A stretch of 64,000 nt of DNA. It comes from a virus (lineage: Duplodnaviria > Caudoviricetes). The stretch lies in IMG/VR virus record IMGVR_UViG_3300044961_000667; one strand, 5' to 3'. This document shows positions 1 to 45,448 of the stretch, piece after piece. The translations under genes and the position numbers were made by a program. Numbering within the stretch: the first letter of the stretch is position 1; each line of letters starts with the position of its first letter. The notes under the pieces are model-generated. The model had not been told where the DNA came from. It saw nothing but the letters and a program-made list of their open reading frames with translations, and did not search any database.

Positions 1-345
1 CTTGCCGTCGATGGAGACAGCATGATCGGCGCCGGGATCCACGATGGCGACTACGTGATCGTCCGCCAGCAGCAAGACCCGCAGGCGGGCGAAATCGTCG
101 TCGCACTCGTCGACGACAACACGACGACGGTCAAGCGCCTCGCGCGAGACGGAGAACGCTTCGTCTTGCAGCCGGAGAACCCGAACCATCGCCCGATCCC
201 GATCGAGAGCAAGGCGGCTGCAATCCAGGGCGTCGTGATCGGTCTCATGCGGGAATACCGCGTTCGCGGGTCGAGTCGCTGGTCACCGCGCTCGGTCGCC
301 GGCTCGCAGCGTTCTGTGGCACGGAGGAGATCCCGTGTCACGTAA
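1..345 (+). CDS. lexA: LexA/S24 peptidase C-terminal domain (5' partial)
   Basis: Frame 1 reads LAVDGDSMIGAGIHDGDYVIVRQQ...GEIVVAL...TVKRL...LQPENP; catalytic Ser (GDSM) and Lys (VKR) present. Confidence 0.75.
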   Translation, partial: LAVDGDSMIGAGIHDGDYVIVRQQQDPQAGEIVVALVDDNTTTVKRLARDGERFVLQPENPNHRPIPIESKAAAIQGVVIGLMREYRVRGSSRWSPRSVAGSQRSVARRRSRVT

Positions 346-460
346 CGTCCAACCCATAGCCACCAAGGTCAGCGCTCGGTCCCAGGGCGCTCAGCAAAGG
401 CGCGTTTCTCAGGCGACCGCCGTGCATGGAGCACGGCCGCCAAAGATGCGAGAGGACAGG

Positions 461-1528
461 ATGACCAAAGCGGGCGCACCGCGCGAGATTACCGTTCCCG
501 GAGGACGCACCCTGAAGGCCACGCCCGTGTACGACACGTACTGGCGGTTCGCCGCGAAACGCCAGGATCTGTTCATGCGTAGGGTCGCGGGCGCTTCACC
601 GCCGTGGTCAGACGACCCCGTGCTCACAGCGCACCGGTTCACGAACGTGTACCGGGCGTCCGATCGCGTCAGCCAGTACCTGATCCGCCATGTCATCTAC
701 GAGGGAGCGCAAGCGGCCGAAGAGGTCTACTTCCGGACGCTGCTCTTCAAGCTGTTCAATCGGATCGAGACGTGGGAGCACCTTGTCTCGAAGCTGGGCA
801 CGCTGAGCTGGCGCGGCTTCGACTTCGAGCGGTACGCGAAGGTTCTCGATGCGGCGATCGGCAGCGGTGAGCGTGTCTACTCGGCCGCGTACATCATGCC
901 CTCCCCGGCATTCGGCAGCGAACGCAAGCACCGGAACCACCTCAGGCTGCTCGAGCACATGATGCGAGATGGCGCACCACGCCGGATCGCTCGCGCGCAA
1001 TCACTGCAGGAAGTCTTCGAGATCCTTCGCGGCTATCCGTCGCTGGGCGGCTTTCTCGCGTTTCAGTTCACCATCGACTTGAACTACAGCGAGCTCATCG
1101 ACTTCTCCGAGATGGACTTCGTGGTTCCCGGCCCGGGAGCGCGCGATGGGATCCGCAAGTGCTTCGGCGACATGGCCGGGCTCAGCGAAGCCGACGTCAT
1201 TCGGATCGTCGCTGAGCGCGCGAGCATTGAGTTCGAGCGGCTGGGCCTCGAGTTCCAAACGTTGTGGGGGCGACCGCTTCAGCTCATCGACTGCCAGAAC
1301 CTCTTTTGCGAGGTCGACAAGTACGCTCGCGTCGTCCATCCGGAGATTCAGGGCGAATCGGGACGGACGCGCATCAAGCAGCGCTTCACGGCGCGCCCGG
1401 AGCCGCTCGATCAGTGGTACCCGCCGAAGTGGGGGCTGAAGGTCCCTCCTTCACCGGCGCGATCTCAAGCGACCCCAGTCCGAGGCCCGCGGCAGCAGCC
1501 GCTTGCTCTTCACGCGGCCAGTCGCTGA
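461..1528 (+). CDS. 5-hmdU DNA kinase / aGPT-pyrophosphorylase clade 1-like (DNA base hypermodification)
   Basis: YWRFAAKRQ...PPWSDDPVL...RFTNVYRASDRVSQYL, YSAAY and DCQNLFCEVDKY motifs; AGAGGA RBS before ATG 461. Confidence 0.75.
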   Translation: MTKAGAPREITVPGGRTLKATPVYDTYWRFAAKRQDLFMRRVAGASPPWSDDPVLTAHRFTNVYRASDRVSQYLIRHVIYEGAQAAEEVYFRTLLFKLFNRIETWEHLVSKLGTLSWRGFDFERYAKVLDAAIGSGERVYSAAYIMPSPAFGSERKHRNHLRLLEHMMRDGAPRRIARAQSLQEVFEILRGYPSLGGFLAFQFTIDLNYSELIDFSEMDFVVPGPGARDGIRKCFGDMAGLSEADVIRIVAERASIEFERLGLEFQTLWGRPLQLIDCQNLFCEVDKYARVVHPEIQGESGRTRIKQRFTARPEPLDQWYPPKWGLKVPPSPARSQATPVRGPRQQPLALHAASR

Positions 1529-1544: not shown

Positions 1545-2141
1545 CTATCTCCGGGTCGTTGGGGCGAGGTAGGTAAGCTCGCGCCGAACGAGATCGATGG
1601 TCACGGTCCCGCCCCTGTTGCTGCGCAGCTTCCGGAACGTCGCATACCCGTCGAGGATCGCCGCTTCCCACTGCCACAGAGGAACTTGGTCGACCTCGAA
1701 GCCCTGGATGAACTCCTGCACCGTTTTGAGGAGATCGTAGTCGACGTGGTCGACCCCGTCGAAGAAGTTCATCTCCTTCGCGCGGCTGAAGACGATGGCG
1801 GCCACGGCCTCCTCCAAAATCACCGCGCGCGCGCCATCCTGTCCCTCGTCCTTCTTGGAGCTGCTCTTCCGCTTGCACCGAAGCAGAGCGCGTACAACCG
1901 GTGACCAGCCGAGATGCACCGCGTGCGCGAAGTGGAAGATGTCGTGGTATCGGTAGCCGTCTGGATCCTCGATGTTGTCCGTGAGCCGATCGCCGAAGTT
2001 GATCCCATTGCACCGAAGCAAGACGACGCGCTGCTCGCCGTTGCCGTAGGTGCAGTCGGCCTCAAAGCCATCGGGCACATGGAGGGCCTCGATGGCGGAG
2101 AGGATTTCCTGCTGGTCCTGGCTGGTAGATTTCCACGTCAT
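1545..2141 (-). CDS. Chimeric ORF: phage MTase-like N-terminal 35 aa fused to a MazG C-terminal domain
   Basis: GDRLTDN..DGYRYHDIFHFAHAVHLGWSPVVRALL..KRKS...DGARA..LEE is MazG_C-like; N-terminus DQQEIL..LHVPDGFEADCTYGNG resembles phage methyltransferase starts (recalled). Confidence 0.6.
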   Translation of the reverse strand: MTWKSTSQDQQEILSAIEALHVPDGFEADCTYGNGEQRVVLLRCNGINFGDRLTDNIEDPDGYRYHDIFHFAHAVHLGWSPVVRALLRCKRKSSSKKDEGQDGARAVILEEAVAAIVFSRAKEMNFFDGVDHVDYDLLKTVQEFIQGFEVDQVPLWQWEAAILDGYATFRKLRSNRGGTVTIDLVRRELTYLAPTTRR

Positions 2142-2205
2142 CGTGTTTCAGCCCCACGAATTGAATCAGCTCCCTGGGCCGCTGTCTCTATCATCCGGGA
2201 CGCCT

Positions 2206-2424
2206 CTATCTATCATCCTGGACATCTGGGAAGTCTGCGTCCGTCCACGTACCGTCTCCCTCCCCTGAGTCGAAATCTTCCAGAGGGAGGTAGTCAGGAC
2301 CGCCGCCGTGGAAGAGCCCTGAATGGCTATCCGGGCTCTCGTCTTCGCCGTAGGCATACCCGACGCCATCGCCGCAGCCTGCACCGGCATCGTCACCGAA
2401 TCCATCATGCGGGCCGCAGCTCAT
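2206..2424 (-). CDS. Gly/Asp-rich peptide 5 (GPH...WTDADFP)
   Basis: ATGA-coupled to upstream paralog; shares N- and C-terminal motifs. Confidence 0.7.
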   Translation of the reverse strand: MSCGPHDGFGDDAGAGCGDGVGYAYGEDESPDSHSGLFHGGGPDYLPLEDFDSGEGDGTWTDADFPDVQDDR

Positions 2425-2675
2425 GTCGCCTCTCCGGGCATGTCGATGTCCGTCCAGATTGTTTCATCATCGACGTACCAGAATGTCTCGCCCATGGTGT
2501 CTCCCGCTCCGCTACCGCTGCCGTCACCATGCCCAGCACCGTGCCTGTCAGTCGGGCTGTCTGGACGGGTGTAGCCGCCGAATCCGTCACCGTTGCCAGC
2601 GCCGGCGTCGAGTCCACACCCGTGGCCGATGGCGTGCTCGCTCGCCAGCAGGTCTAGGCGAGTGAGCGGCTTCAT
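2421..2675 (-). CDS. Gly/Asp-rich peptide 4 (...WTDIDMP)
   Basis: ATGA overlap; shared C-terminal motif. Confidence 0.7.
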   Translation of the reverse strand: MKPLTRLDLLASEHAIGHGCGLDAGAGNGDGFGGYTRPDSPTDRHGAGHGDGSGSGAGDTMGETFWYVDDETIWTDIDMPGEAT

Positions 2676-2962
2676 GGTGTGCCCTTCCAGTCACGGGCTG
2701 GCCCCTCCCAGTCACGGGGCATGTAGATGTCTGTCCACGCGCTGCCTGTGTGCGTGCCGTCGTAGTCGCCCTCGCCGCTGCCGTCGCCGTTGCCGGAGCC
2801 GCCACCGTCGCCCCATACATCTTCGTCCAGCGCGTCGCCGCTGCATGGCGCTGGGCTTCCGTGGCCATGGCCATCACCGCCCCCATAGCCGTCGCCATCG
2901 CCGCTGCCACGGCCAGAGCCGACCTCCCAATCATCTCCCGCATGCGGCCCGTATGGAGTCAT
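2672..2962 (-). CDS. Gly/Asp-rich peptide 3 (YGPH...WTDIYMP)
   Basis: ATGA overlap at 2959-2962. Confidence 0.75.
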   Translation of the reverse strand: MTPYGPHAGDDWEVGSGRGSGDGDGYGGGDGHGHGSPAPCSGDALDEDVWGDGGGSGNGDGSGEGDYDGTHTGSAWTDIYMPRDWEGPARDWKGTP

Positions 2963-3171
2963 GGTTCCTCCGGGGGCATGGTGATGTCCGTCCACGCACC
3001 GCCTGTGTGGGTGCCGTCGTAGTTGCCGTCGCCGCTGCCGTCACCGTCGCTTTCGCCATAACCCCAGCCGATACGGTTCTTGCCGCCGGCTCCAGAGCTA
3101 TAGCTGAAGCCGCTGCCACGGCCAGAGCCCACCTCCCAGGCCTGGCCGTCATGTGGTTTGTGGCGTTTCAT
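2959..3171 (-). CDS. Gly/Asp-rich peptide 2 (KPH...WTDITMP)
   Basis: ATGA overlap at 3168-3171. Confidence 0.75.
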   Translation of the reverse strand: MKRHKPHDGQAWEVGSGRGSGFSYSSGAGGKNRIGWGYGESDGDGSGDGNYDGTHTGGAWTDITMPPEEP

Positions 3172-3434
3172 GGCTCCTTTTCAGGCATGGTGATGTCCGT
3201 CCACCTTCCCTCACCGTCTCCAACACCATTACTCCGACCGAAGCCAGAGCCAGAGCCGTCGCCGTCACCACTGTTATCGTTATAGCCAGAATCATAGCCG
3301 GAGCCGAAACCGTAGCCGACGCCGTGGCTAGAACCAGAAATGTACGCTAATCCGGGTCCAGAGCCGCAGCCAAAGCCAATACCATCGCCCGCTCCGTCCT
3401 CGTCACCAAAACCAACGTGTGGCCCGTAGCGCAT
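3168..3434 (-). CDS. Gly/Asp-rich peptide 1 (YGPH...WTDITMP)
   Basis: TGATG overlap with the DUF6948 stop at 3432-3436. Confidence 0.75.
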   Translation of the reverse strand: MRYGPHVGFGDEDGAGDGIGFGCGSGPGLAYISGSSHGVGYGFGSGYDSGYNDNSGDGDGSGSGFGRSNGVGDGEGRWTDITMPEKEP

Positions 3435-3808
3435 CACCCGCCCCACCTCGACGCGGTGAGGGACGGGGCCGCCGTCTCGCTGACCGGCAGAATCTCAGAC
3501 ACGTCCGCGACAAGGTGATGGGGAATAGGCCGTGCGATGCGCGTGCCCTCCATCTCCACGCCATCGCGCGCTACCTCGGACAGCGTGTATGCGCCGTACC
3601 ACCGCCAGATGCGGCGTGACTCAAGCAGCACCGCCGTCCGGCTGGCGGCGTCGTACTCAGCGAGCCATCCGACGTGGACGCCGGCCCCACGGGTACGCAC
3701 CACGACGAGAGGGCACAGGCCCTTCTCGCGGAGCACCTCGCCCGTGAGGAGACTTCTCTCGCGGGCTTCGTCGGCGGCGATGGCTTTCTCTGTTTTGGTT
3801 GCGCTCAT
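3434..3808 (-). CDS. DUF6948-like protein
   Basis: VVVRTRGAGVHVG...SRRIWRWYGAYTLSEVARDGV...EILP matches recalled family motifs. Confidence 0.7.
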   Translation of the reverse strand: MSATKTEKAIAADEARERSLLTGEVLREKGLCPLVVVRTRGAGVHVGWLAEYDAASRTAVLLESRRIWRWYGAYTLSEVARDGVEMEGTRIARPIPHHLVADVSEILPVSETAAPSLTASRWGG

Positions 3809-4292
3809 GGTTACGTATGTAACACGTCGAGTTATTTGTTTACGAAATACTACGCAACATCCGGCGGTCAACGCCGAGAGCGTGCTCGTGGAGGTCGTCC
3901 AGACTGGTATGACTCAAATCTGAGAGCAGTCGCTCGCGTACAAATTACGGCCCCATCCCATCTTTGCGCCGTCGTAGTTCGCGGCGCACGGCGACGAGGT
4001 AGTCCTCAACACAGCGCAGGTGCCACGCCGTCAGGCGCACGAAGCCTGCCTTGCGCAACGTAGCCTCAAGTGCGGCGTCTGGAATCATTTGCTCTCCGTA
4101 GATTTTCCCCGACGCCGTGTCCGCGCGGCGAGTCATCGTCCACACGCCCTCCTTGGGCAGCCACCTGGGCCACCTCCTGACACTCCGGGTGACACGTATG
4201 GTGCGTCGGTCCTTTGCCTGGGGCGGGCGGCCATGGAGCGATGGGCTCGCCCTGACAGAGCCGACAAGTCTTGACGCAGTTGCTTGCGCACC

Positions 4293-4502
4293 TCACGCGT
4301 ACCTCCAGGTGGCCATCTCCGGCAACCGCCAGCCGCACTTCGAGCAGTAGTGCCAGTCGTGCGACGAGTCTCGCTCGTGTCCGGAGGGCTCCCGCTCGAC
4401 ATCGCCGCCACACCGAGGGCAACTCAGGCATCCGCCCTGGACGTACTCCCGAATCTCCTCCTCGGAGAGTTCGGCCTTCTCCTTCACGCACGCCTTCGTC
4501 AC
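4293..4502 (-). CDS. Small Zn-ribbon protein
   Basis: CPRCGG...CSKCGW; GTGA overlap with upstream stop. Confidence 0.55.
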   Translation of the reverse strand: MTKACVKEKAELSEEEIREYVQGGCLSCPRCGGDVEREPSGHERDSSHDWHYCSKCGWRLPEMATWRYA

Positions 4503-4714
4503 GCGTACTTCCTCAGTCGCTCCATGGCCTGTTCCATGGTGATTGGCCGGTCGCCGGGGAATCCGTGCTTCACCCAGGACTTGGCCACCATGTCGTGGCA
4601 GCTGCCGCACGTGCCGAAACCGATGTCGCGCTCGGGATCGTGCGGCAAGTCCGTCCTGAAGCGTTGGCCACAGCAGTGGCACTCCACGGTACGGTAAAGA
4701 CCAGTCTCACTCAT
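4499..4714 (-). CDS. Small Cys-rich hypothetical protein
   Basis: CHCC...CGSC; coupled to neighbours. Confidence 0.55.
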   Translation of the reverse strand: MSETGLYRTVECHCCGQRFRTDLPHDPERDIGFGTCGSCHDMVAKSWVKHGFPGDRPITMEQAMERLRKYA

Positions 4715-5133
4715 TCGCCTCTCCTTGTCGGCCACACATACGGCAGGTTGTCTGGTACGCCGGGGAACAACGGCCCGTAGTGCGACGGCAGTTTCCGCAC
4801 GAGGTTGCTCTGGTGGCTCCGGTGGAACTCAGGATCGCCCAGCCACGACGGAGAAGTGCCGGTGTGACGCTGCATCGTCGAGACAAACTCACCGCGGATG
4901 GTGTCGTTGTACCCTCGGGCAATCCACTCGTCGGACATGGCGAGGCCGTACGCCGCCAAGTAGCGCAGGTGGCCTTCCCACATCTTGGCGGCCGGGTGGT
5001 TTCTCCAACCCTGCGTGCGTCCTTCCAACGCTCGAATCAGCTGGAGGGCCTCCACGCGTTGTTTGCCGAGGCGCCTGTAGTCGAGGGCCCTGGCTGATGC
5101 TCCGAAGTCCACCAGCGGCAGGAAGGTCTGCAC
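4711..5133 (-). CDS. Pyrimidine-dimer DNA glycosylase-like (MSMEG_6728 family)
   Basis: MQTFLP...LDYRRLGKQRVEALQ...WRNHPA.KMW...WLGDPEFHRSHQSNL. Confidence 0.85.
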   Translation of the reverse strand: MQTFLPLVDFGASARALDYRRLGKQRVEALQLIRALEGRTQGWRNHPAAKMWEGHLRYLAAYGLAMSDEWIARGYNDTIRGEFVSTMQRHTGTSPSWLGDPEFHRSHQSNLVRKLPSHYGPLFPGVPDNLPYVWPTRRGE

Positions 5134-5134
5134 A

Positions 5135-5641
5135 TCAGCGCAGCTCCGGGTGCTCTTCGCAGTACTCGTCGAAGTCCTGGCCTGTCTCCGGGTGGCACCA
5201 GTCGAACCAGGCGTCGTCCTTGGTCGGCTTCCCGTCGTCGTCCACGGCGCTGTCCGGCTCGTAGATCTGCAGGCCGCCGGCGTTCGAGTAGTCGGGCTTG
5301 ATGCGGTGCTGCAGCTGGAACATGTCGTAGTTCGCCAGCGTGTCGATCAGCAGCTTGGCCTCACGGAGCGTCTTGACTGGGACGTGGAACGCCTTGCCTG
5401 GAACCTGGGGGATCCACCAGACCCGGAGATCTCCCTTCTTCGGCTCCGTCTTCTTCGCCTTCTTCGCCATGACGTCTCCCTTCTCCAGAAACTGCAGATG
5501 ATCTCTGTCGTACGTGCGCAGCTCGGCACCGAAGCTGATCTTCACCCGCGTCTTGAGCACCCGCTGCACGGTGCCCAAGCCCCAATCGGGGTACCAACGA
5601 TCGCGGACCTTCAGCCCCAGCTTGAACTCGTCGAGCCTCAC
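5135..5641 (-). CDS. SH3-like N-terminus plus gp17-type superinfection-exclusion domain
   Basis: LRVWWIPQVPGKAF...LANYDMFQ...IKPDYSNAGGL; internal RBS and in-frame ATG at 5470. Confidence 0.65.
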   Translation of the reverse strand: MRLDEFKLGLKVRDRWYPDWGLGTVQRVLKTRVKISFGAELRTYDRDHLQFLEKGDVMAKKAKKTEPKKGDLRVWWIPQVPGKAFHVPVKTLREAKLLIDTLANYDMFQLQHRIKPDYSNAGGLQIYEPDSAVDDDGKPTKDDAWFDWCHPETGQDFDEYCEEHPELR

Positions 5642-14250: not shown

Positions 14251-15207
14251 TTACAGCGACAGCTGCAGGGTCATCTGCCCCGTGGCGATGGGCAACGTCC
14301 CGATGCGCTGGAGCAGGTAGCCGTTGACTCCCGTGATGCTGCCCGGCGGGTTCAGGCACGAGCCCTGGTTCCAGCGGCTGTACTTCCAGGCGACCAGGTT
14401 GGCCATCGTCGACGTCACCACGTACGCGGTCTGCCCGAAGACGAGCGTCTCGCCCGGCCGGTGCGTCGTCGTGTACTTCGGCACGTTCGGATCGGAGTCG
14501 GAGCAGCCGGTGCCGCTGAAGAACCAGATCACCTCGTCGTTGACGATCATCGCCGTCCGACGCTGGTAGGTGACGAGCACGCGGTAGGTGCCGACCTGCA
14601 ACACCGTCGTCACCGTCCCGAGGGCGTTCGCCCCCGAAGAGTCGGCGTTCATCGGGTCCGGCAGCGTGTACGAGACGACCGGGCCGATGATCGCCCCCGA
14701 GCCGTCCTGCGTGAAGAGGTGGTTCGGCCCGGCGGGACCTGCAGGACCAACAGGCCCCTGCGGACCAGTCGCGCCAGTCGCGCCCGTTGCGCCGGTCGCT
14801 CCCGTTGCGCCGGTGGCCCCGGTTGCTCCAGTCGCCCCGGTTGCTCCAGTCGGGCCAACATCACCGCGGGGGCCAGTCGCTCCGGGCATTCCGGGCGGCC
14901 CCTGCAGCCCCATCGGGCCCTGCACGCCCTGGATGCCCTGCGGCCCCTGCTGCCCCGGCGCCCCGTCGAGACCAGGAGGCCCCTGCAGGCCCTGCGGTCC
15001 CTGTGGACCGACTTCTCCGCGTGGCCCCTGCGGACCGGCGTCCCCCTGCGGACCTCGCGGCCCCTGCGGGCCCTGTGGGCCGGCGGGACCAGTCGGCCCC
15101 ACCTCACAGGCGGGGCTGCACGACGCGTCTTCTGCGACCGGCGTCAGCTGCTGACACCCAACCAACATCGACACTGCCAGACATGCGAATGCGATCTGCC
15201 GTTTCAT
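14251..15207 (-). CDS. Collagen-like lipoprotein
   Basis: MKR..hydrophobic..LVGC lipobox; long G-X-Y run including GATGATGAT; globular C-terminus. Confidence 0.8.
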
Positions 15208-15249
15208 GGTGTGGCCTCCTTTGGATCCCAAGTTCTTTGGGATGCTTAG

Positions 15250-38338: not shown

Positions 38339-38427
38339 CGGAGCGGGTCCGAGTCGAACGGACAGCCCGCCTTTCGACGAGCAAGCGCTTTCGAGACGCT
38401 CTGACTTGCCTGTGTGCAAACCGCTCC
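38339..38427 (-). tRNA. tRNA-Ser(CGA)
   Basis: Cloverleaf with long variable arm. Confidence 0.88.
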
Positions 38428-38523
38428 AGAAACACCCTCAGATGACCGCCTGAGGGGCGCGGGGGCCTGTTGGCCGAGATGCCCCTAGCTGTCGCCAGTT
38501 CGTGAGCGTCTCGGGACGGCTTG

Positions 38524-38610
38524 CGGAAGACGGAGGACTCGAACCCCACACCCACTCGGGGTGCCGACCGCTTTCAAGGCGGGCCAGCGTCCATCACTGG
38601 TTCATCTTCC
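38524..38610 (-). tRNA. tRNA-Ser(TGA)
   Basis: Cloverleaf with long variable arm. Confidence 0.9.
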
Positions 38611-38611
38611 A

Positions 38612-38941
38612 TCACTGCGATCGCGGCTGATCGGCGTTCCAGACGGAGCGGCCCATCGCTCCCTCATCGGCCTCAGCGTTCTTCAACATCGAGTAGTAGT
38701 CCGGTCGCTCCTTCAGGTGCGCCCAGGCGATCTTCCCGATGTCGAGCAGGTCGTCAACCACGTCGGTCTCCGGGTCGACGTCATGCTCCGACTCAACCCC
38801 GAGACCGGCCGCGAACTCTCCGAGGTCGACCTGGCTCCAGTCGATCCCCAGCTGGTCGCCAACCCACTTCGCCAGCTCAGGGCTCCATGCCGGCGCCTCG
38901 CCGACCTCTTCCTTCAGCTGCCTGACGAGCTTCCTGAGCAT
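38612..38941 (-). CDS. DUF5661-like protein
   Basis: GLGVESEH...KIAWAHLKERPDYYSMLK. Confidence 0.75.
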   Translation of the reverse strand: MLRKLVRQLKEEVGEAPAWSPELAKWVGDQLGIDWSQVDLGEFAAGLGVESEHDVDPETDVVDDLLDIGKIAWAHLKERPDYYSMLKNAEADEGAMGRSVWNADQPRSQ

Positions 38942-38981
38942 GCGGTGGCCTCCGGGCGCACAGTACACCCAGAGGCCACCC

Positions 38982-39524
38982 TCAGTCTTCCAGCTCGGTG
39001 TTCCAGTACGCCACCGAGGCGAGCCACTGCTTCCACGGCTCGGGCATGCCCTTCTTCCAGGTGAAGGTGAGCCGCACCGACTCGGGCAACGACTTCGGCT
39101 TCACCGGCACCTGCAGGAGCTTCATGCCTGCCTGCGCTGGCGTCCGACCGCCCTTCTTCTGGTTGCAGGGCGTGCACGACACCACGATGTTCTCCCACGT
39201 CGTGTGGCCGCCCTGCGTGCGCGGGACGACGTGGTCGTACGTGAAGTCGTGCCTGGGCACCTTCGCCGAGCAGTACTGGCACTTGCCCTTGTCTCGCGTG
39301 AAGACGTTCTCGCGACTGAACTTGATCGCCTTCTTCTTGCCGCGGATCGCCCGGAGGAACCGGATCACCGACGGCACCTTGAACTCCAACGTCATCGAGC
39401 GGACGGTCTTGTCCTCGTACTCCTCGACGACTTCCACCTTCTCCTCCCAGAGGAGGGTGATCGCCCGTTGCCAGCTCACGCGGGCAACCGGGGTGTAGCC
39501 AACATCGAGCACCAGCGTTTCCAC
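38982..39524 (-). CDS. HNH endonuclease (McrA-like)
   Basis: FSRENVFTRD..KCQYC...TYDHVVPR..GG.T.WENIV.SC..CN.KK. Confidence 0.9.
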   Translation of the reverse strand: METLVLDVGYTPVARVSWQRAITLLWEEKVEVVEEYEDKTVRSMTLEFKVPSVIRFLRAIRGKKKAIKFSRENVFTRDKGKCQYCSAKVPRHDFTYDHVVPRTQGGHTTWENIVVSCTPCNQKKGGRTPAQAGMKLLQVPVKPKSLPESVRLTFTWKKGMPEPWKQWLASVAYWNTELED

Positions 39525-39562
39525 GTTGCCCGTCCTTTCTGCGGCCTTCGCCGCGGTGAGTG

Positions 39563-39647
39563 TAGTCCCGGCCGGACTCGAACCGGCACGGCCTTTGTGG
39601 CCACTGGGGTTTGAGCCCAGCGCGTCTACCGACTCCGCCACGGGACC
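39563..39647 (-). tRNA. tRNA-Leu(CAA)
   Basis: Cloverleaf. Confidence 0.9.
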
Positions 39648-39652
39648 ATCTG

Positions 39653-39741
39653 TGCTCGGGGCGAGACTCGAACTCGCATGAGGCTTTCGCCCCACCGGCT
39701 TCTGAGGCCGGCGTGTCTACCGAAGGTTCCACCACCCGAGC
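39653..39741 (-). tRNA. tRNA-Leu(CAG)
   Basis: Cloverleaf. Confidence 0.9.
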
Positions 39742-39752
39742 ATGCACTTCAG

Positions 39753-39839
39753 TGGTCCGGGCGAGAGTCGAACTCGCATGATCTTTCGATCGGCAGGCTC
39801 TCAACCTGCTGTGTCTACCGGAGGTTCCACCACCGGACC
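39753..39839 (-). tRNA. tRNA-Leu(GAG)
   Basis: Cloverleaf. Confidence 0.9.
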
Positions 39840-39843
39840 AAAG

Positions 39844-39916
39844 TACCCGCTCTCGGAATCGAACCGAGCCCTCCGCCTTGTGAAAACGGCGCTCTCACCA
39901 GTTGAGCTACGCGGGC
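39844..39916 (-). tRNA. tRNA-Val(CAC)
   Basis: Cloverleaf. Confidence 0.88.
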
Positions 39917-39919
39917 ATG

Positions 39920-39991
39920 TCGTGAGCCTGGGAGTCGAACCCAGCTGGGCGGATTATGAGACCGCTGCCTTCCCTCGATGGCTTGCTCACG
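39920..39991 (-). tRNA. tRNA(CAT), Met or Ile2
   Basis: Loop CTCATAA. Confidence 0.8.
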
Positions 39992-39994
39992 GAG

Positions 39995-40067
39995 TAGCAG
40001 GGGCTGGGATCGAACCAGCGTTCTCCAGGTTATGAGCCTGGCGAGATGACCTCTTCTCCACCCTGCA
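39995..40067 (-). tRNA. tRNA-fMet(CAT)
   Basis: 1:72 mismatch; loop CTCATAA. Confidence 0.85.
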
Positions 40068-40068
40068 G

Positions 40069-40142
40069 TACTCCCGGAGGGACTCGAACCCCCAGCCTCT
40101 TCGTTCGTAGCGAAGCGATCTGATCCGTTGATCTACGGGAGC
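40069..40142 (-). tRNA. tRNA-Arg(ACG)
   Basis: Cloverleaf. Confidence 0.9.
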
Positions 40143-40154
40143 ATCAAACAACAG

Positions 40155-40228
40155 CGGTCTCGGCGGGACTCGAACCCGCGGCCTTTCGCTTCGGAGGCGA
40201 ACGCTCTCATCCACTGAGCTACGAGACC
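40155..40228 (-). tRNA. tRNA-Arg(CCG)
   Basis: Cloverleaf. Confidence 0.9.
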
Positions 40229-40230
40229 AG

Positions 40231-40303
40231 CGTTCCCGGAGGGACTCGAACCCCCGACTTCTCCGTTAGGACCGGAGCACTCTTCCAACTGAGCTACGGG
40301 AAC
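40231..40303 (-). tRNA. tRNA-Arg(CCT)
   Basis: Cloverleaf. Confidence 0.88.
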
Positions 40304-40309
40304 ATCCTG

Positions 40310-40380
<71 letters not shown>

Positions 40381-40779
40381 TCAACCAACCACGTACTTCT
40401 CAGCCAACTTCACACCGGACTTCTGACCGTTCTTGGCAGGCTCGACCCGAAGCTGCCCGCCAACGGCCCCAACCTCCTCGACCGGGACCAGATACACCGC
40501 ATCCAACTCTGGGCAGTGGACGCCGAAGAACTCGACCTCACCGCGGTACGACTTTCTCCCAGTCCCTCGGTGAGCCGAGTTGCTGCTGGTGTCGAAGACA
40601 ACCGCTCCATTCTTGAGCCGCCCAGTCTTGCACTGCACTCGCTGGAACCCGGCATCAGTGTCGATCACCAGGTCGTAGCGCTGGTTCTCTCCAATCGGGA
40701 GCAGCACCGTCCTCCCGGTCTTGAGCAACGCCGCCATCACCGCACCCTCTGTTCTCGTCCCCTGCGCCTTGGTGTTCAT
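40381..40779 (-). CDS. PD-(D/E)XK endonuclease (PDDEXK_5-like)
   Basis: G...E...P.GENQRYDLVID...RVQCKT. Confidence 0.88.
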   Translation of the reverse strand: MNTKAQGTRTEGAVMAALLKTGRTVLLPIGENQRYDLVIDTDAGFQRVQCKTGRLKNGAVVFDTSSNSAHRGTGRKSYRGEVEFFGVHCPELDAVYLVPVEEVGAVGGQLRVEPAKNGQKSGVKLAEKYVVG

Positions 40780-40795
40780 GCTCCACATCTACCAC

Positions 40796-40841
40796 ACCGC
40801 TCGGACACCAGCCGAGTGCTCTGCCTTCGAGCTGCGGGGGC
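40796..40841 (-). pseudogene. 5' fragment of tRNA-Thr(GGT)
   Basis: GCCCCCGCAGCTCGAAGGCAGAGCACTCGG-CTGGTGT-CCGAG; no T-arm. Confidence 0.7.
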
Positions 40842-40845
40842 GCTG

Positions 40846-40918
40846 TGGATCTGGCCGGACTCGAACCGGCAACCTTCTGCGTGCAAAGCAGCCGCTCTCC
40901 CATTGGAGCTACAGACCC
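40846..40918 (-). tRNA. tRNA-Ala(TGC)
   Basis: G3:U70. Confidence 0.92.
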
Positions 40919-40923
40919 TTCAG

Positions 40924-40996
40924 TGGAACCGGCGGGACTTGAACCCGCCACCTCTCGCATGCGAAGCGAGCGCTCTCCCAGATGAGCTACGGCCCC
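40924..40996 (-). tRNA. tRNA-Ala(CGC)
   Basis: Cloverleaf. Confidence 0.92.
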
Positions 40997-41001
40997 AGGT
41001 G

Positions 41002-41072
41002 TGCGCGAGCAGGGAGTCGAACCCTGTCGTCTCCCGCGTCGGGGGAGTGCTCTACCGGTGAGCTACACGCGC
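41002..41072 (-). tRNA. tRNA-Val(GAC)
   Basis: Cloverleaf; atypical loop CCGACGC. Confidence 0.8.
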
Positions 41073-41161
41073 ATGGGCAGGCGGTGCTTTCGCCGAGCTG
41101 CCAGCAGTCACCACGTTCGTGACCCCGGCCCTGCTCGGTAGACTGCCACCTCTCCTGCTTG

Positions 41162-41234
41162 TGGACCCGGCGGGGATCGAACCCGCTACCTCTCGCATGC
41201 CATGCGAGCGCTCTCCCAAGTGAGCTACAGGCCC
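41162..41234 (-). tRNA. tRNA-Ala(GGC)
   Basis: Cloverleaf. Confidence 0.92.
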
Positions 41235-41326
41235 TAAGCGAGGCAGTTCGTAACGCTGCCTGCCCGGCTTTCCACCGGCGCGGGTTGATCAGACCCACGA
41301 GACTTGCCCGGAGCGACCGGGCCATG

Positions 41327-41399
41327 TGCCGTCCCTCGGAATCGAACCGAGATCCTCCGCTCTTCAGGCGGGTGCATGGACCACCACTGCCAAGACGGC
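41327..41399 (-). tRNA. tRNA-Phe(GAA)
   Basis: Cloverleaf. Confidence 0.85.
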
Positions 41400-41408
41400 G
41401 TACTTCAG

Positions 41409-41480
41409 CGGACCCGAACGGAATCGAACCGTCCTCGCCGGCGTGACAGGCCGGTCGCCTCACCAGATGCGTACGGATCC
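41409..41480 (-). tRNA. tRNA-Asp(GTC)
   Basis: Cloverleaf. Confidence 0.9.
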
Positions 41481-41485
41481 AACAG

Positions 41486-41568
41486 GGCGACTGGAGAGAA
41501 TCGAACTCTCACTGAGCTTTCGCTCGCGGGGTCACAACCCGCTGGGAACCCATTTCCCATCAGCCGCC
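41486..41568 (-). tRNA. tRNA-His(GTG) with a long variable arm
   Basis: G-1:C73; variable hairpin GAGC-GAAA-GCTC. Confidence 0.85.
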
Positions 41569-41697
41569 AGAAGAAATCTGCTCCACCCGAGTGAGGAAGG
41601 CATGAAACGGGTTTGAACCGTCTGGTCGATTTAGCAGATCGACTGATCACCAAGATCAGTAGTGCGTGTGAGCCATCCTCGGCCGGGTGGTGCAGAG

Positions 41698-41769
41698 TCC
41701 GCCGCAGTGGAATCGAACCACTTGCCTCTCGCTTATCAGGCGAGTGCTCTTCCAGTGAGCTACCGGCGG
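41698..41769 (-). tRNA. tRNA-Ile(GAT)
   Basis: Cloverleaf. Confidence 0.85.
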
Positions 41770-41778
41770 GCACGTCAG

Positions 41779-41852
41779 TCAGGGTGGCTGGGATCGAACC
41801 AGCGACCTCCTGCATCCGAAGCAGGCGCGCTACCAGGCTGCGCTACACCCTG
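41779..41852 (-). tRNA. tRNA-Pro(CGG)
   Basis: Cloverleaf. Confidence 0.92.
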
Positions 41853-41862
41853 TTGAGTCAAG

Positions 41863-41899
41863 TCAGGTCGGCTGGGATCGAACCAGCGATCTCCTGCAT
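41863..41899 (-). pseudogene. 3' half of a split tRNA-Pro
   Basis: ATGCAGGAGATCGCTGGTTCGATCCCAGCCGACCTGA; acceptor CGACCTG pairs 7/7 with CAGGTCG at 42446-42452. Confidence 0.8.
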
Positions 41900-42327
41900 C
41901 ACCAGACGTGGTCACTGGCCAGCAGGATGTTCTTCTTGGCCCCATTCGCGGGGGCCTCCAATCTCACATGCAGGATCGACTTCCCCTGGAACTCCTCAGG
42001 CAGGAAGGCCGTCACCACGTCCATCTCAGGCAGATACACCAGAAGCAGGTCAACCTCCCCGACCTCATACTTCTTGAACGACTTGTTGCTCGGTCCCACC
42101 CACGTCCTCAGAGCCACAGTCGCCACGCCGGACGAATGAGACGACTTGCCGCCTCCATACTTCGCTTGGGCCCGGATCAACCTAACACCATCATCCAGAA
42201 CCAGATCGTACCTGGCATCGGTTGTGGGCCGACTGACGACAAACCCCTTCTCAATCGCCCTCTGCTGCGCCTTCAGCGATGCCACTTCACCCTTCTGCCT
42301 GGTGTCCACTTCTCTTGCGTACCACAC
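41899..42327 (-). CDS. PD-(D/E)XK endonuclease (PDDEXK_5-like)
   Basis: KG...GF.VS.P..DARYDLVLD...AQAKY; lower GC. Confidence 0.88.
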   Translation of the reverse strand: MWYAREVDTRQKGEVASLKAQQRAIEKGFVVSRPTTDARYDLVLDDGVRLIRAQAKYGGGKSSHSSGVATVALRTWVGPSNKSFKKYEVGEVDLLLVYLPEMDVVTAFLPEEFQGKSILHVRLEAPANGAKKNILLASDHVW

Positions 42328-42340
42328 AGGAGAACATCTG

Positions 42341-42412
42341 TCGAAGAGACTGGACTCGAACCAGCATCCTCACGGCCCCCAGCCGTGCGCTCCACCATTG
42401 AGCTACTCCTCG
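42341..42412 (-). tRNA. tRNA-Pro(GGG), intact copy inside the insertion
   Basis: CACGG-CTGGGGG-CCGTG; acceptor CGAGGAG/CTCTTCG. Confidence 0.88.
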
Positions 42413-42417
42413 TCACG

Positions 42418-42452
42418 CCCGAGCAGGCGCGGTACCACTCCGCTACGACCTG
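42418..42452 (-). pseudogene. 5' half of the split tRNA-Pro
   Basis: CAGGTCGTAGCGGAGTGGTACCGCGCCTGCTCGGG. Confidence 0.8.
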
Positions 42453-42456
42453 AAAG

Positions 42457-42528
42457 TCTGGAAGGCGGGGATCGAACCCGCGACCTCTCGCGTCCAAGGC
42501 GAGCGCCCTACCGCTGGACTACTTCCAG
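42457..42528 (-). tRNA. tRNA-Pro(TGG)
   Basis: Cloverleaf. Confidence 0.9.
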
Positions 42529-42530
42529 TT

Positions 42531-42545
42531 GTGCAATCGATTGCG
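42531..42545. repeat. GTGCAATCGATTGCG palindrome copy
   Basis: Exact 15-mer, 2 nt before tRNA-Pro(TGG). Confidence 0.8.
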
Positions 42546-42712
42546 TTCAAAACTGTGCAGTGCGGACTGGCGGTTTGCACCCGCTGCACCGCATTGTCGG
42601 CCTGGCCTCAATAGGCCGCACGGTCCCACGCCGTCGAACGCCAGGACCTGCACCAACCACCGCCATGTTCGACCTGCCAAGCGGTGCCCGTTCATGCCGG
42701 GATGCTGCACAG

Positions 42713-42784
42713 TACCCCGTACGAGAATCGAACTCGTTTCGCTCGCTTGAAGGGCGAGGGGCCTAACCAATGGCCGAACGGGGC
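42713..42784 (-). tRNA. tRNA-Glu(TTC)
   Basis: Cloverleaf; first 22 nt overlap the HNH ORF end. Confidence 0.88.
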
Positions 42785-43119
42785 TTCTCTGCTCGATCAT
42801 GCGTCCTCTGCCGATGACAGTTGGCGCAGACCACTTCACATTTCTCGATCTCGGCTACGACCTTCTCAGGTCCGACACCGTGCCTCTTGAACTGCCCCAG
42901 GCTGAACTCCTTCCGACCCCTGACGTGATCAAAGTCCATCACCCATGGCGGATAGGCGACACCGCAGTCCGCGCACGGCCTGGACTTGGCTTTGTCGATG
43001 ATCGCCTTGATCGTCTCTTTGTAGGCCGCTGCCGCTCTGATGTACGAGATCTTGTTCTTCTCGTAGTGCCTGCGGCTGTACTCGGCCTGCTTCGACTTCG
43101 ACGGCTCTCTGAGCGGCAT
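42763..43119 (-). CDS. HNH endonuclease
   Basis: PCADCG...MDFDHV...KCEVVCANCHRQRT; same family as 36452-36979. Confidence 0.88.
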   Translation of the reverse strand: MPLREPSKSKQAEYSRRHYEKNKISYIRAAAAYKETIKAIIDKAKSRPCADCGVAYPPWVMDFDHVRGRKEFSLGQFKRHGVGPEKVVAEIEKCEVVCANCHRQRTHDRAEKPRSAIG

Positions 43120-43152
43120 TCTTCGTCATACCACTTGACGAACCTTTCGTCA

Positions 43153-43198
43153 CTCCACCTTGAAAGGGTGTCGGCCTCACCTGAAGCACCAACGGGGC
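43153..43198 (-). pseudogene. 5' fragment of tRNA-Glu(TTC)
   Basis: GCCCCGT...CACC-CTTTCAA-GGTG; no T-arm. Confidence 0.65.
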
Positions 43199-43203
43199 TG
43201 AAG

Positions 43204-43274
43204 TACCGCGTACGGGTGTCGAACCCGTCTCACTGGGCTGAGAACCCAGGGACCTCCCGGAAGTCGAACGCGGC
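43204..43274 (-). tRNA. tRNA-Glu(CTC)
   Basis: Cloverleaf. Confidence 0.88.
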
Positions 43275-43280
43275 TTGAAG

Positions 43281-43353
43281 AGGCGGAGGCGGGAGTCGAA
43301 CCCGCTCGATGTCGGTTTTGCAGACCGATGCCTTCCCAGTTGGCTACTCCGCC
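43281..43353 (-). tRNA. tRNA-Cys(GCA)
   Basis: Cloverleaf, U73. Confidence 0.9.
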
Positions 43354-43375
43354 AGGGAAAGACGAGACTGTGCAC

Positions 43376-43732
43376 ATGAAGCGCGTGCTGTGCCTTGATG
43401 ACGACGACATGGTGGCCCGGCTCATCGCCGAGGTGGTCGAGTTCTGCGGACACGAGCCCGTTCGAGAGAGCGACCCGCTGAAGGCTTCCTCGGACCACCT
43501 CCACGACCGGAAGATCGCTGCGGTGCTCACCGACTACATGATGCCTCGCCTCGATGGCGTCGACGTTCTGGTGGTCTGGCAGGAGTCTCGACCCGAGGTG
43601 CGCCGAGTGCTGATCACCGCGGCCCCGAACGAGCCGGCGGTGAAAGAGGCCCTCCGCACCGGCGTCGCTCAGATGGTGATCGCTAAGCCTCCGACGATCG
43701 CCGACATCAAGATGGCCCTGGCCTGGCTCTGA
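43376..43732 (+). CDS. Single-domain response regulator receiver
   Basis: LDDD, TDYMMP (phospho-Asp), LIT, AKP. Confidence 0.9.
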   Translation: MKRVLCLDDDDMVARLIAEVVEFCGHEPVRESDPLKASSDHLHDRKIAAVLTDYMMPRLDGVDVLVVWQESRPEVRRVLITAAPNEPAVKEALRTGVAQMVIAKPPTIADIKMALAWL

Positions 43733-43733
43733 G

Positions 43734-44297
43734 CTACCGCTTCTTCCTCGCCAGTCGCTCCTCCAGCTGCTGAACCGACATCTGGATGGAGTCGTTGATC
43801 GACCGCATCATGTCCTGCCGGAGCTTGTACTCCAGCTCCTGCAGCTTCTTGTCGGAGGCGTCCTTCGACTCCTTCTCGCGCTGGCGGTAGTACTCACCCT
43901 GTTTCTCGATGCGCTGGTCCACCGCCTGCCGGATCTCCGAGACCGTTCCCTTCATGGCCTCGATGGCCGACAGCACCTGCTTCATCTCGGTCTGAACGTT
44001 GCCGACCGACTTGTCGATACCGGCCAGGGCGTCGCTCTGCTCGTCGAACTTGTCGTCGTGCTCGTCGAGCCGCTCTTCGGTCTTCTGCTTGTCCTTGTCC
44101 TCGCGGTCGACCGTCCGCGAGCCCAGCCACTTGACGAAGCCAACGACGGCTCCGATCAACTGGGTGACGACTGCTGCTCCGACCAGCAAGTACAGCCCGG
44201 TCAGCCCGTCACCTGCTGGCGCTGGCGGTGGGGTTGCTGCTGCGGCTCCTGCCGCCGCCGCCGCCGCCGGGCCCGCCGCCAAGATCAACAGGTTCAA
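43734..44297 (-). CDS. Single-TM coiled-coil protein (possibly lysis-related)
   Basis: One hydrophobic helix, then a coiled coil. Confidence 0.6.
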   Translation of the reverse strand: MNLLILAAGPAAAAAAGAAAATPPPAPAGDGLTGLYLLVGAAVVTQLIGAVVGFVKWLGSRTVDREDKDKQKTEERLDEHDDKFDEQSDALAGIDKSVGNVQTEMKQVLSAIEAMKGTVSEIRQAVDQRIEKQGEYYRQREKESKDASDKKLQELEYKLRQDMMRSINDSIQMSVQQLEERLARKKR

Positions 44298-44300
44298 GAA

Positions 44301-44657
44301 CTACTCCTTGCTCGACAGATCGTCGTCGTCGTCGGGCTCTTCAGAGGGCACCGCCGACACCGGAGTCGCTGGCGGGAGGTTCACCTGCAGCTTGGCCGCA
44401 ATGGCGTCCACCACCTTCGACGTGTGCCGGCTTTCCATCTGCATCGACATCATCAGCTTCTCGCCTCGGAGCGTGCGCTCGTCGACATGCTTCACGGCGG
44501 TCTTCAGTGCCGCCAGGTCCTCGCCGAAGCCGGCCATTTTGGACCTCATCTCGTGCATGTCCTCTTCGAGCTTTGCCACTCGCGAGGCCAGGCTGATGGC
44601 CGTCGGCTTCCGCTTTCTTGGGGCCGTACGGAGGCCCCTCCCTCTGGTGTCACGCAA
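44301..44657 (-). CDS. Coiled-coil hypothetical protein
   Basis: Heptads. Confidence 0.55.
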   Translation of the reverse strand: MRDTRGRGLRTAPRKRKPTAISLASRVAKLEEDMHEMRSKMAGFGEDLAALKTAVKHVDERTLRGEKLMMSMQMESRHTSKVVDAIAAKLQVNLPPATPVSAVPSEEPDDDDDLSSKE

Positions 44658-44768
44658 AGTCGCTCTCCGAAGAAGCGGTCCACGGTCGTGGTTCTCTCAC
44701 GGCCTGCTGTTGGTTGACTGCTCCATCTTTCGCCCTCTTCTGGGCATCCGTCAACTGTCACTGATGCG

Positions 44769-44839
44769 TACCCTCTCGGAATCGAACCGAGCACCGTCGG
44801 CTTAACAGGCCGCTGCTATCAACCAGACCAGCTCAGGGC
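44769..44839 (-). tRNA. tRNA-Asn(GTT), imperfect acceptor
   Basis: Loop CTGTTAA; good T-arm. Confidence 0.7.
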
Positions 44840-44847
44840 ACATCGTA

Positions 44848-44918
44848 CTGGGGAGGAAGGGATCGAACCTTCTCCGTCGGCTTCAGAGACCGCTGCGCTA
44901 CCCTTGCGCCACTCCCCA
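44848..44918 (-). tRNA. tRNA-Gln(CTG)
   Basis: Cloverleaf. Confidence 0.9.
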
Positions 44919-44930
44919 ATGTCTTTCGCT

Positions 44931-44996
44931 CAGGGGCCCTGGGAATCGAACCCAGCTCGTCGGCTTCAAAGGCCGACTCACTCCCTGAGTACCCCT
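44931..44996 (-). tRNA. tRNA-Gln(TTG), short D region
   Basis: TCGGC-CTTTGAA-GCCGA. Confidence 0.72.
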
Positions 44997-45001
44997 CCAT
45001 G

Positions 45002-45073
45002 AGCGGGTGGCGAGGATCGAACTCGCGCATCCTGGGTTGGAAGCCCAGAGCCTTTCCGCTTGGCTACACCCGC
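45002..45073 (-). tRNA. tRNA-Gly(TCC)
   Basis: Cloverleaf. Confidence 0.9.
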
Positions 45074-45076
45074 ATG

Positions 45077-45147
45077 TACCGCCGCTGGGGATCGAACCCA
45101 GTCCCTCCGCTTAAAAGGCGGTTGCTCTACCCTTGAGCTACGACGGC
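45077..45147 (-). tRNA. tRNA-Lys(TTT)
   Basis: Cloverleaf. Confidence 0.9.
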
Positions 45148-45186
45148 GCGTGGACCTGCGCCGTCGCGTTTCATCTTCGTCTTCAT
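45127..45186 (-). CDS. Mini-ORF MKTKMKRDGAGPRAVVAQG running into tRNA-Lys
   Basis: AAGGAG RBS; three Lys codons in the first six. Confidence 0.45.
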   Translation of the reverse strand: MKTKMKRDGAGPRAVVAQG

Positions 45187-45204
45187 CGTCGTCTCCTTGT
45201 CGAG

Positions 45205-45292: not shown

Positions 45293-45295
45293 ATG

Positions 45296-45366: not shown

Positions 45367-45448
45367 ATACGGCTTTGTCGCTGACGGCCGCGCAGATCCT
45401 CGTGCGGAATGCACGAAGGACTGAACGTCTGCCGGCGACAGAAGCCAG

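Follow-up and report, generated by a model that had tools for sequence, protein, structure and literature searches.

The Sm fold is found in proteins with low-complexity tails, such as eukaryotic SmB, SmD1, SmD3 and LSm4, which carry Arg-Gly dipeptide-repeat tails. An analogy of another kind is offered by SspB-type adaptors, made up of a folded domain, a flexible linker and a C-terminal tethering peptide; a literature search on this point gave nothing useful. In Hfq of Escherichia coli, RNA and the disordered, acidic C-terminal domain are competitors for the Sm core (PMC5606850), and in Hfq of Acinetobacter baumannii GGFGGQ repeats precede the acidic end (PMC11617691). Bacterial SSB is built from an OB-fold core, a 56-residue Gly-rich disordered linker and a 9-residue acidic tip (PMC7145534). 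The locus reported here comes from an uncultured tailed phage, IMG/VR record IMGVR_UViG_3300044961_000667, of which a stretch of 64,000 nucleotides (nt), called the window below, was analysed (64% GC, with 38 tRNA genes and a tmRNA). Its minus strand carries, between positions 3808 and 2206, a DUF6948 gene followed by an array of five small genes, pep1 to pep5, encoding acidic Gly-rich peptides. The array is best explained as a lineage-specific amplified version of a two-gene module, DUF6948 plus a Gly-X partner, widespread in phages.

The module is present in Ralstonia phage NK-7, where a DUF6948 protein of the same family (XCO36016) is followed on the same strand, within few bases, by a Gly-rich acidic open reading frame (ORF) annotated as 'fibroin heavy chain-like protein' (XCO36015). 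The product of the latter starts with MKRWHKP..., close to the MKRHKPH of pep2. NK-7 and the majority of distant members have one strict (Gly-X)n partner with no conserved tail, whereas the window has five degenerate partners (21-32% Gly), a conserved W-x-D-[P/I]-x-M-P tail and a DUF6948 protein with an extra, predicted N-terminal helix. New with respect to what was known are the conservation of heads and tails at the protein level throughout a clade, the use of a tail-coding 21-mer as a copy-number breakpoint within one sample, the apparent decay of the Gly-X register in the amplified copies and the double role of the last codons, which also form the ribosome-binding site of the next gene.

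With Hfq, the locus would share a small Sm barrel and a Gly-rich and/or acidic disordered arm ending in a short conserved motif; unlike in Hfq, the arm is a polypeptide of its own, of which there are up to five versions, DUF6948 is not basic, and no sequence similarity to Hfq or LSM is found. The eukaryotic Sm and LSm tails are basic and fused to the core, whereas those of the window are acidic (Gly-Asp/Ser/Tyr) and separately encoded. The likeness to SSB resides in the combination of a barrel, a disordered linker of variable length and a short conserved C-terminal docking motif, and in the presence of recombination genes nearby, but the fold is a different one, DUF6948 has no PF00436 match, and the tip differs in sequence and does not sit at the very C-terminus. 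A role of DUF6948 as a general SSB replacement in recombination modules was rejected, since NK-7 encodes its own canonical SSB elsewhere.

The array and its conserved ends

A preliminary description of this DNA, made from its letters, had listed five ORFs overlapping stop to start, which can be read directly from the sequence at the same positions. The DUF6948 gene (3808..3434, minus strand as all the following, 124 residues, with a Pfam PF22253 match) is joined to pep1 by a TGATG, and the remaining four junctions are of the type ATGA, where the start codon lies on the stop of the preceding gene. pep1 (3434..3168, 88 residues) is a predicted acidic Gly-rich disordered partner with head MRYGPH and tail GRWTDITMPEKEP. 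pep2 (3171..2959, 70 residues, head MKRHKPH, tail GAWTDITMPPEEP) is a shortened paralogue of pep3 (2962..2672, 96 residues, head MTPYGPH), whose tail SAWTDIYMP is followed by a 16-residue extension. pep4 (2675..2421, 84 residues, tail TIWTDIDMPGEAT) begins with MKPLTRLDLL..., without a GPH head, and has the most degenerate core, with 21% Gly. The last gene of the array, pep5 (2424..2206, 72 residues, head MSCGPH, tail GTWTDADFPDVQDDR), encodes a peptide with a net charge of -18 and is separated by 64 nt from a MazG_C gene. Taken together, the five peptides are 70-96 residues long, with 21-32% Gly, isoelectric points of 4.0-5.1 and net charges from -4 to -18. Stop-start overlaps of the TGATG/ATGA type also occur in relatives; they would allow co-translation and suggest that the genes of the array are translationally coupled. 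The AT-richer intergenic region of 136 nt located 5' of DUF6948 (3809..3944, minus strand) is, judging from sequence, the probable start of the transcription unit; scanning the surroundings of the operon revealed neither a sigma-70 promoter consensus nor a convincing terminator. The sequencing runs found to contain the region included no listed RNA run.

The tail strings of pep1 to pep5 are WTDITMP, WTDITMP, WTDIYMP, WTDIDMP and WTDADFP. GPH or KPH heads in four of the five peptides, and ends of the WTD(I/A)x(M/F)P type in all of them, had been pointed out in the preliminary description and are both present. A search of the six-frame translation of the 64 kb for the pattern W[TSVML]D[PIA]x[MFIT]P gave five matches, against a mean of 0.03 in shuffled sequence (30 shuffles); exactly five matches, all at the ends of the five peptides, confirm the initial observation together with its coordinates. 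The strings WEVGSGRGSG and YDGTHTGxAWTDI, correctly reported as common to pep2 and pep3, correspond to direct repeats, 2877-2995/3086-3204 (119 nt at 72% identity) and 2716-2793/2973-3050 (78 nt at 87%). The codons which follow the tail motif (EKEP, PEEP, GEAT) also provide the next gene with its Shine-Dalgarno sequence (AAGGAG, GGAGGA, GGAGAGG) and its start, while the W-x-D-x-x-M-P portion of the tail is located upstream of them.

Conservation of the ends was evaluated in the close clade, where DUF6948 proteins are 52-76% identical to that of the window. Complete partners were read from the window (five), from loci L003 and L053 (two each) and from L004, L006, L037, L039, L054, L057/L058 and L008 (one each). 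Every one of them keeps G-x-W-x-D, followed by [P/I/A/Q]-x-[M/F/T/I]-[P/H], and all 12 of the aligned partners, without exception, have the W and D of the tail; the partners of L053, L054, L057 and L058 carry the same tail motif. The heads of the clade, short and basic, read R-G-P-H, P-R-G-H-P-L or R-R-(L)-G-T-R-F. Since the codons for Gly, Thr, Asp and Pro of the tail motif differ synonymously between loci, conservation operates at protein level and gene conversion alone does not account for it. The preliminary description had made its reading depend on conservation of the motif in other DUF6948 loci: this holds for all complete partners of the close clade, synonymous codon variation included, but not for distant members, which have no fixed ends. 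In divergent N-terminally extended relatives the caps fade, L071 keeping P-I-R-H-P-L and G-E-W-R-D-D and L073 being divergent.

A degenerate DNA pattern for G-x-W-x-D-P-x-M-P-[D/E] did not match any Gly-rich gene in IMG/VR, a database which is essentially devoid of the capped clade, L008 excepted. The sequences matched there (L041-L050) belong to an unrelated AT-rich phage gene family carrying HGAWTDPQMPDTYCLYGD (HGAWTDPQMPD...), the only other place where W-T-D-P-x-M-P-D appeared; the string was taken as coincidental.

Between the caps, the peptides vary. L039 and L040 encode identical DUF6948 proteins and partners with the same caps, but of different length, one partner having 34 residues and the other a longer core; in L057 and L058, which likewise agree in DUF6948, the same caps are mounted on 87 and 57 residues. 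These pairs indicate that spacer length is free and caps are fixed, and support the earlier description of variable cores and constant ends beside one small globular protein. Caps, acidity and disorder would be the features under selection, length and exact repeat being free, and cores without a strict repeat keep charge and caps. The clade thereby gives an experimental handle on an otherwise featureless repeat protein, provided with two short, conserved, mutable motifs. Natural variants are available in which spacer length or copy number is the sole difference, and the caps make the question of function directly testable, with defined peptides for binding assays.

The number of copies per array is one in L004, L006, L037, L039, L054 and L057, two in L003 and L053, four in L029, L031 and L032 and five in the window. 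Contigs with four copies, whose DUF6948 is identical to that of the window, differ by a clean indel of 209 nt: pep2 is gone and pep1 is left with a pep2-type tail. The breakpoint falls inside an exact 21-nt repeat on the minus strand, whose upstream copy (3184..3204) codes for W-T-D-I-T-M-P at the pep1 tail and whose second copy (2975..2995) is located at the pep2 tail. Among public assemblies compared with the region, a 7.3-kb contig from run X10 (wastewater study) skips exactly 2975-3183, with the joint 2974>3184 and 21 ambiguous letters. Run X1 (hot-spring/microbial-mat), the likely source sample, contains a contig passing through pep2 (2961-3199) and a short contig joining 2995 to 3205-3213; both junction types being present, forms with four and five copies coexist in one sample. 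Given that the breakpoint lies within the tail-coding 21-mer, the conserved tail is also a recombination substrate, and recombination within the stretch that encodes it adds and removes copies, one event removing exactly one 209-nt unit.

A different 'joint', of 223 nt, detected in runs X5 and X14, had short sides and inserted letters and was discarded as cross-matching repeats from other organisms. The X10 contig also lacks one base at 2428, which would turn the GEAT end of pep4 into a slightly longer one, overlapping the start of pep5; either genuine variation or faulty assembly may be responsible.

The array also moves as part of a larger unit. Window positions 2027-4532 match positions 2277-4574 of L029, a 14-kb JGI contig, over about 2.5 kb at 98-99% identity, the shared block extending over the array and DUF6948 as well as a pair of small genes upstream. 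The flanks are unrelated, L029 having an AAA ATPase and a ResIII helicase in place of MazG_C and kinase, so the block moves between genomes as a mosaic cassette. Contigs up to 200 kb long carry the DUF6948 protein cluster of the window.

The DUF6948/Gly-X module

DUF6948 loci were collected from INPHARED (Ralstonia phage NK-7), IMG/VR (21), JGI/ENA metagenomes (19) and contigs encoding close homologues, and linkage was counted in non-redundant loci whose sequence continued for 150 nt or more past the gene, ranging from 35 to 71% GC. A Gly-rich frame was found directly behind DUF6948, on the same strand, in 35 of 36 loci, against 12.9% of 651 control positions. The preliminary description had placed DUF6948 beside single GDG-rich ORFs in phages, and this was right. 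The window conforms to the arrangement, its first Gly-rich ORF lying directly behind DUF6948 with the TGATG at 3434. A profile search of 1.84 billion representatives returned 2298 DUF6948 clusters, which places DUF6948 and its Gly-X partner among the commonest uncharacterised gene pairs of tailed phages; only about six of these clusters belong to the N-terminally extended clade of the window. No relative was detected by a single-sequence scan of viral contigs, and none by a scan of genome contigs with the clade profile.

In five short-read loci (L034-L036, L038, L005), contigs stop at most 50 nt after the DUF6948 stop codon. Such breaks are expected for repeat-rich, heterogeneous DNA, so that Gly-X genes are probably under-represented in assemblies and annotations.

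The frames of the array could be incidental products of GC-rich DNA, the sequence working as a DNA-level slippage array or recombination hot spot. DNA of this composition does yield spurious frames, as the long Arg/Ala/Pro frames of the opposite strand and the 12.9% of Gly-rich control positions testify, and GC content at third codon positions is 0.57-0.73 in the peptide genes, below the 0.80-0.83 of neighbouring genes. Spurious ORFs are nevertheless excluded by the conservation of frame, strand, overlap and amino-acid caps across a 36-point GC range (35-71%), with synonymous changes; moreover, the indel of the variants removes exactly one gene unit and leaves all frames intact. This explanation has next to no probability left, and the five peptides are almost certainly products of real genes, members of the DUF6948/Gly-X module.

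Most partners in the loci collected are strict (Gly-X)n sequences, where X is Asp, Ser or Tyr, sometimes Asn, His or Phe, with short lineage-specific heads and no conserved tail. The partners of the window depart from this strict register, while retaining acidity and caps: a Gly is followed by another at position +2 in 50-73% of cases in the window copies, against 94-98% in relatives with one or two copies, and Gly makes up 27-38% of the core, against 44-50%. Homology being shown by the shared caps, the window partners are regarded, on these sequence comparisons, as degenerate derivatives of Gly-X partners, whose repeat register would have decayed after amplification, with selection keeping disorder, negative charge and caps.

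The partners are predicted to be acidic and intrinsically disordered. An AlphaFold2 model of pep1, obtained with an alignment of partners, has a mean predicted local distance difference test (pLDDT) value of 35.6, and only its last block, the tail, comes near 61. The five peptides are not recognised by any family library, including Pfam, PHROGs, PADLOC and NCBIfam; weak matches to a PHROG and to TrAA12 were rejected as low-complexity noise.

Fold of DUF6948 and possible roles of the pair

The DUF6948 protein matches Pfam PF22253 with an E value of 2.4e-19 and 69.7 bits (cut-off 27), over profile positions 4-84 of 85. Its AlphaFold2 model, built on an alignment of 21 relatives, has a mean pLDDT of 86.9. 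A poorly defined N-terminal helix (5-28) is followed by strands 34-39, 43-53 and 58-69, a short helix (76-82) and strands 95-100 and 103-108. Residues from about 30 to 110 form an Sm/LSm-like beta-barrel, in which the extra helix 76-82 falls between strands 3 and 4 of the Sm fold, and residues 1-30 are a helical extension specific to the clade. The Sm fold is characterised by an N-terminal helix ahead of a bent beta-sheet of five strands. The top 50 Foldseek matches against PDB were all Sm/LSm chains (E from 2e-3 to 1e-2). VIA-align, independent of Foldseek, gave Lsm1-7 (6ppv_A) as best match, with Z 7.1 and a root mean square deviation of 2.2 A over 62 residues, followed at lower scores by SmF, Lsm4, archaeal SmAPs and Hfq; LSm families were also returned by a structure search of the ESM Atlas, in agreement with both. 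According to the model, DUF6948 is a small barrel of the Sm/LSm fold, with similarity at the fold level only, since Z values below 8 can reflect a mere common arrangement. A sequence search of PDB with the family profile found nothing at E < 1, DUF6948 had no matches in PHROGs, PADLOC or NCBIfam, and no paper was retrieved by a full-text literature search for 'DUF6948'.

Invariant residues of the family cluster outside the loop between strands 2 and 3: G-V-H-x-G follows strand 1, R-R-x-W-x-W closes strand 3, and S-R-W is C-terminal. Tandem double-DUF6948 proteins of 216-242 residues are encoded in metagenomic sequences (P0050, P0058, P0143), which hints at self-association of the barrel, as a dimer or a higher oligomer. 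Such tandem duplications occur among the top 150 representatives of the profile search, none of which is a fusion of DUF6948 with Gly-X.

For the pair, a mechanism can be put forward tentatively, at somewhat less than even confidence, in which the Sm-fold DUF6948 is a hub and the peptides are its detachable, disordered acidic arms. The barrel would probably self-associate, and the partners would serve as flexible arms of the resulting oligomer. The caps would be short linear motifs, one docking the arm on DUF6948 and the other binding either DUF6948 or a host factor, while the acidic Gly-rich spacer would set the reach of the arm and compete with nucleic acid or other ligands of the barrel. 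The module would act early in infection, among genes of DNA metabolism and recombination. If true, this would extend the principle of a barrel with a disordered tail, known from Hfq and SSB, to a split and amplifiable phage system.

Several observations weigh against this mechanism. A Pfam scan of DUF6948 with E up to 0.1 revealed no LSM, Hfq or other family. In Sm proteins, the loop joining strands 2 and 3 contributes to RNA binding; in the DUF6948 alignment this loop is variable and contains indels. The net charge of DUF6948 is roughly neutral (median +0.5 over 186 proteins), so that binding of nucleic acids is not indicated by the sequence; neutral charge and missing Sm motifs speak against a straightforward parallel with Hfq. 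Within the clade, a fusion of DUF6948 with Gly-X was not detected, the search for longer forms being weak evidence. Distant members have no conserved caps, and L070, an N-terminally extended relative, is without the tail motif, so the caps cannot be the general mechanism of the module. Furthermore, the 'constant end' owes part of its constancy to the nucleotide sequence, since its last 3-4 codons (EKEP/PEEP) supply the following gene with a Shine-Dalgarno sequence and start. A prediction of the complex between DUF6948 and pep1, with a score of 0.30 (mark 0.32), speaks neither for nor against binding.

A more specific form of the hub-and-arm idea, quite unlikely as it stands, is that of a split hub made of barrel, linker and tip, which tethers a host machine. 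An arm would plug by one cap into a DUF6948 ring, leaving the other cap (G-x-W-x-D-P-x-M-P) free to meet a host protein. An AAA+ protease might be the target, slipping on the Gly-rich spacer, or else an enzyme of nucleic acids, deceived by regularly spaced carboxylates. Recombination at the 21-mer coding for the tip would expand, shrink and diversify the repertoire of arms within the phage population.

The same two caps and flexible spacer could also belong to a condensate scaffold, in which partners of the sticker-spacer kind, with a FUS-like Gly/Tyr/Ser/Asp spacer, cross-link multivalent DUF6948 rings into a phage-induced compartment for replication or recombination. Some relatives have cores rich in [G/S]Y[G/S], several arm paralogues are present in one operon, and the Sm fold is common in proteins of eukaryotic RNA granules, LSm14 and EDC3 being among the structure matches. 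The cores of the window are, on the other side, poor in Tyr (3-6%) and strongly acidic, which favours solubility over self-association, and this possibility is judged improbable.

Several small paralogous peptides with conserved ends beside one small protein also recall an array of precursors of ribosomally synthesized and post-translationally modified peptides (RiPPs) with a PqqD-like RiPP recognition element (RRE). This resemblance had led the preliminary description to a RiPP-like reading, with the five peptides as precursors and DUF6948 as recognition element for a modifying enzyme. The locus has no modifying enzyme, RRE fold or leader/core layout. The genes located after the array differ in every relative, without a conserved modifying enzyme; DUF6948 is modelled as an Sm-like barrel, not as a PqqD-like winged helix; both ends are conserved, rather than a leader, around cores made up of low-complexity repeats whose length varies freely; and distant members lack anything resembling a conserved leader. 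Lacking a conserved enzyme, having the wrong fold and showing two caps around a length-variable, low-complexity core, the system fails as a RiPP locus, and the reading is highly improbable.

Genomic context

The survey of gene neighbourhoods called for in the preliminary description bore out the linkage of DUF6948 to a Gly-rich frame (35 of 36 loci); the genes flanking the module differ between loci. Close relatives have ERF or RecT, a PD-(D/E)XK/DUF2800 exonuclease and MazG directly upstream of the module; other genes flanking it in relatives encode a membrane protein, an NlpC/P60-like protein, an AAA ATPase and P22 Y8K6-like proteins. A Pfam tally of 84 neighbouring ORFs from 24 loci is led by PDDEXK_1, RecT, ERF, DUF3799, PDDEXK_14, DNA methylases, VapE, Rha and SNF2, and assigns the module to the early region of phage genomes, that of DNA metabolism.

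In the window, a minus-strand MazG C-terminal-domain gene (2141..1545; PF18722, E 6e-70) lies directly downstream of the array, and is adjoined by a plus-strand 5-hydroxymethyldeoxyuridine (5-hmdU) DNA kinase gene (335..1528; PF18723, E 7e-114). Both are hallmarks of thymidine hypermodification pathways. Upstream of DUF6948, on the minus strand, are genes for a pyrimidine-dimer DNA glycosylase (4711-5133; PF03013) and for a GP17-like superinfection-exclusion protein with a DUF3553 N-terminus (5135-5641). In the first 6 kb, blastn detected nucleotide similarity to cultured phages only in this GP17-like gene (Nocardia phages NC1 and P69, 75% over 149 nt); the match does not concern the array.

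The position among early genes disfavours a function in the virion. The preliminary description had considered a scaffold/cargo system; in its capsid version, the constant ends would serve for targeting or cleavage, as in T4 internal proteins or encapsulin cargo, and DUF6948 an assembly chaperone. Constant short ends on variable acidic bodies would suit such a role, and T4-type heads contain acidic internal peptides. Almost all module loci lie, in contrast, among early, recombination or nucleotide-metabolism genes and not among head genes, and neither a protease nor a capsid gene is linked to the module, which makes a capsid role very improbable.

The same context bears on the main rival of the hub-and-arm mechanism, namely that the acidic Gly-rich peptides are effectors, decoys for host takeover or counter-defence. 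The peptides would either mimic single-stranded nucleic acid or act as 'slippery' tethered substrates which occupy an AAA+ protease or nuclease; the tail motif would bind the host target, DUF6948 being only a chaperone or adaptor for solubility or delivery. In favour are the early neighbourhood, with the GP17-like superinfection-exclusion gene in the window and Acb2/Tad1-like, GmrSD-like and S-adenosylmethionine-lyase genes in relatives, the fast turnover of core length and copy number, typical of arms-race genes, and the strongly negative charge of the peptides. In addition, Gly-rich tracts are known to weaken the grip of ClpXP-type motors (PMC6677533). Against it, no match to anti-defence or defence families was found in PADLOC, PHROGs or Pfam, slippage-prone repeats change length fast even without selection, and the near-universal pairing with DUF6948 argues for the pair, rather than the peptide alone, as the functional unit. 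Decoys are on balance unlikely; if true, they would constitute a new class of phage effectors.

Further features of the window lie far from the array. A minus-strand block (36894-45751) contains 38 tRNA genes, including one with anticodon CUA, called 'Pyl' by ARAGORN, and a tmRNA (37318-37700; Rfam 123.6 bits) with tag peptide ANDNVEAAPMLAAA. Two minus-strand ORFs with collagen triple-helix repeats (PF01391) are located at 14251-15231 (E 5.5e-21) and 61881-63881, where the match is weak and below the Pfam cut-off. Together with a Laminin_G_3 protein of 594 residues (57476-59260) and an ORF of 2017 codons with no Pfam match (50802-56855), they are probably tail-fibre or structural genes.

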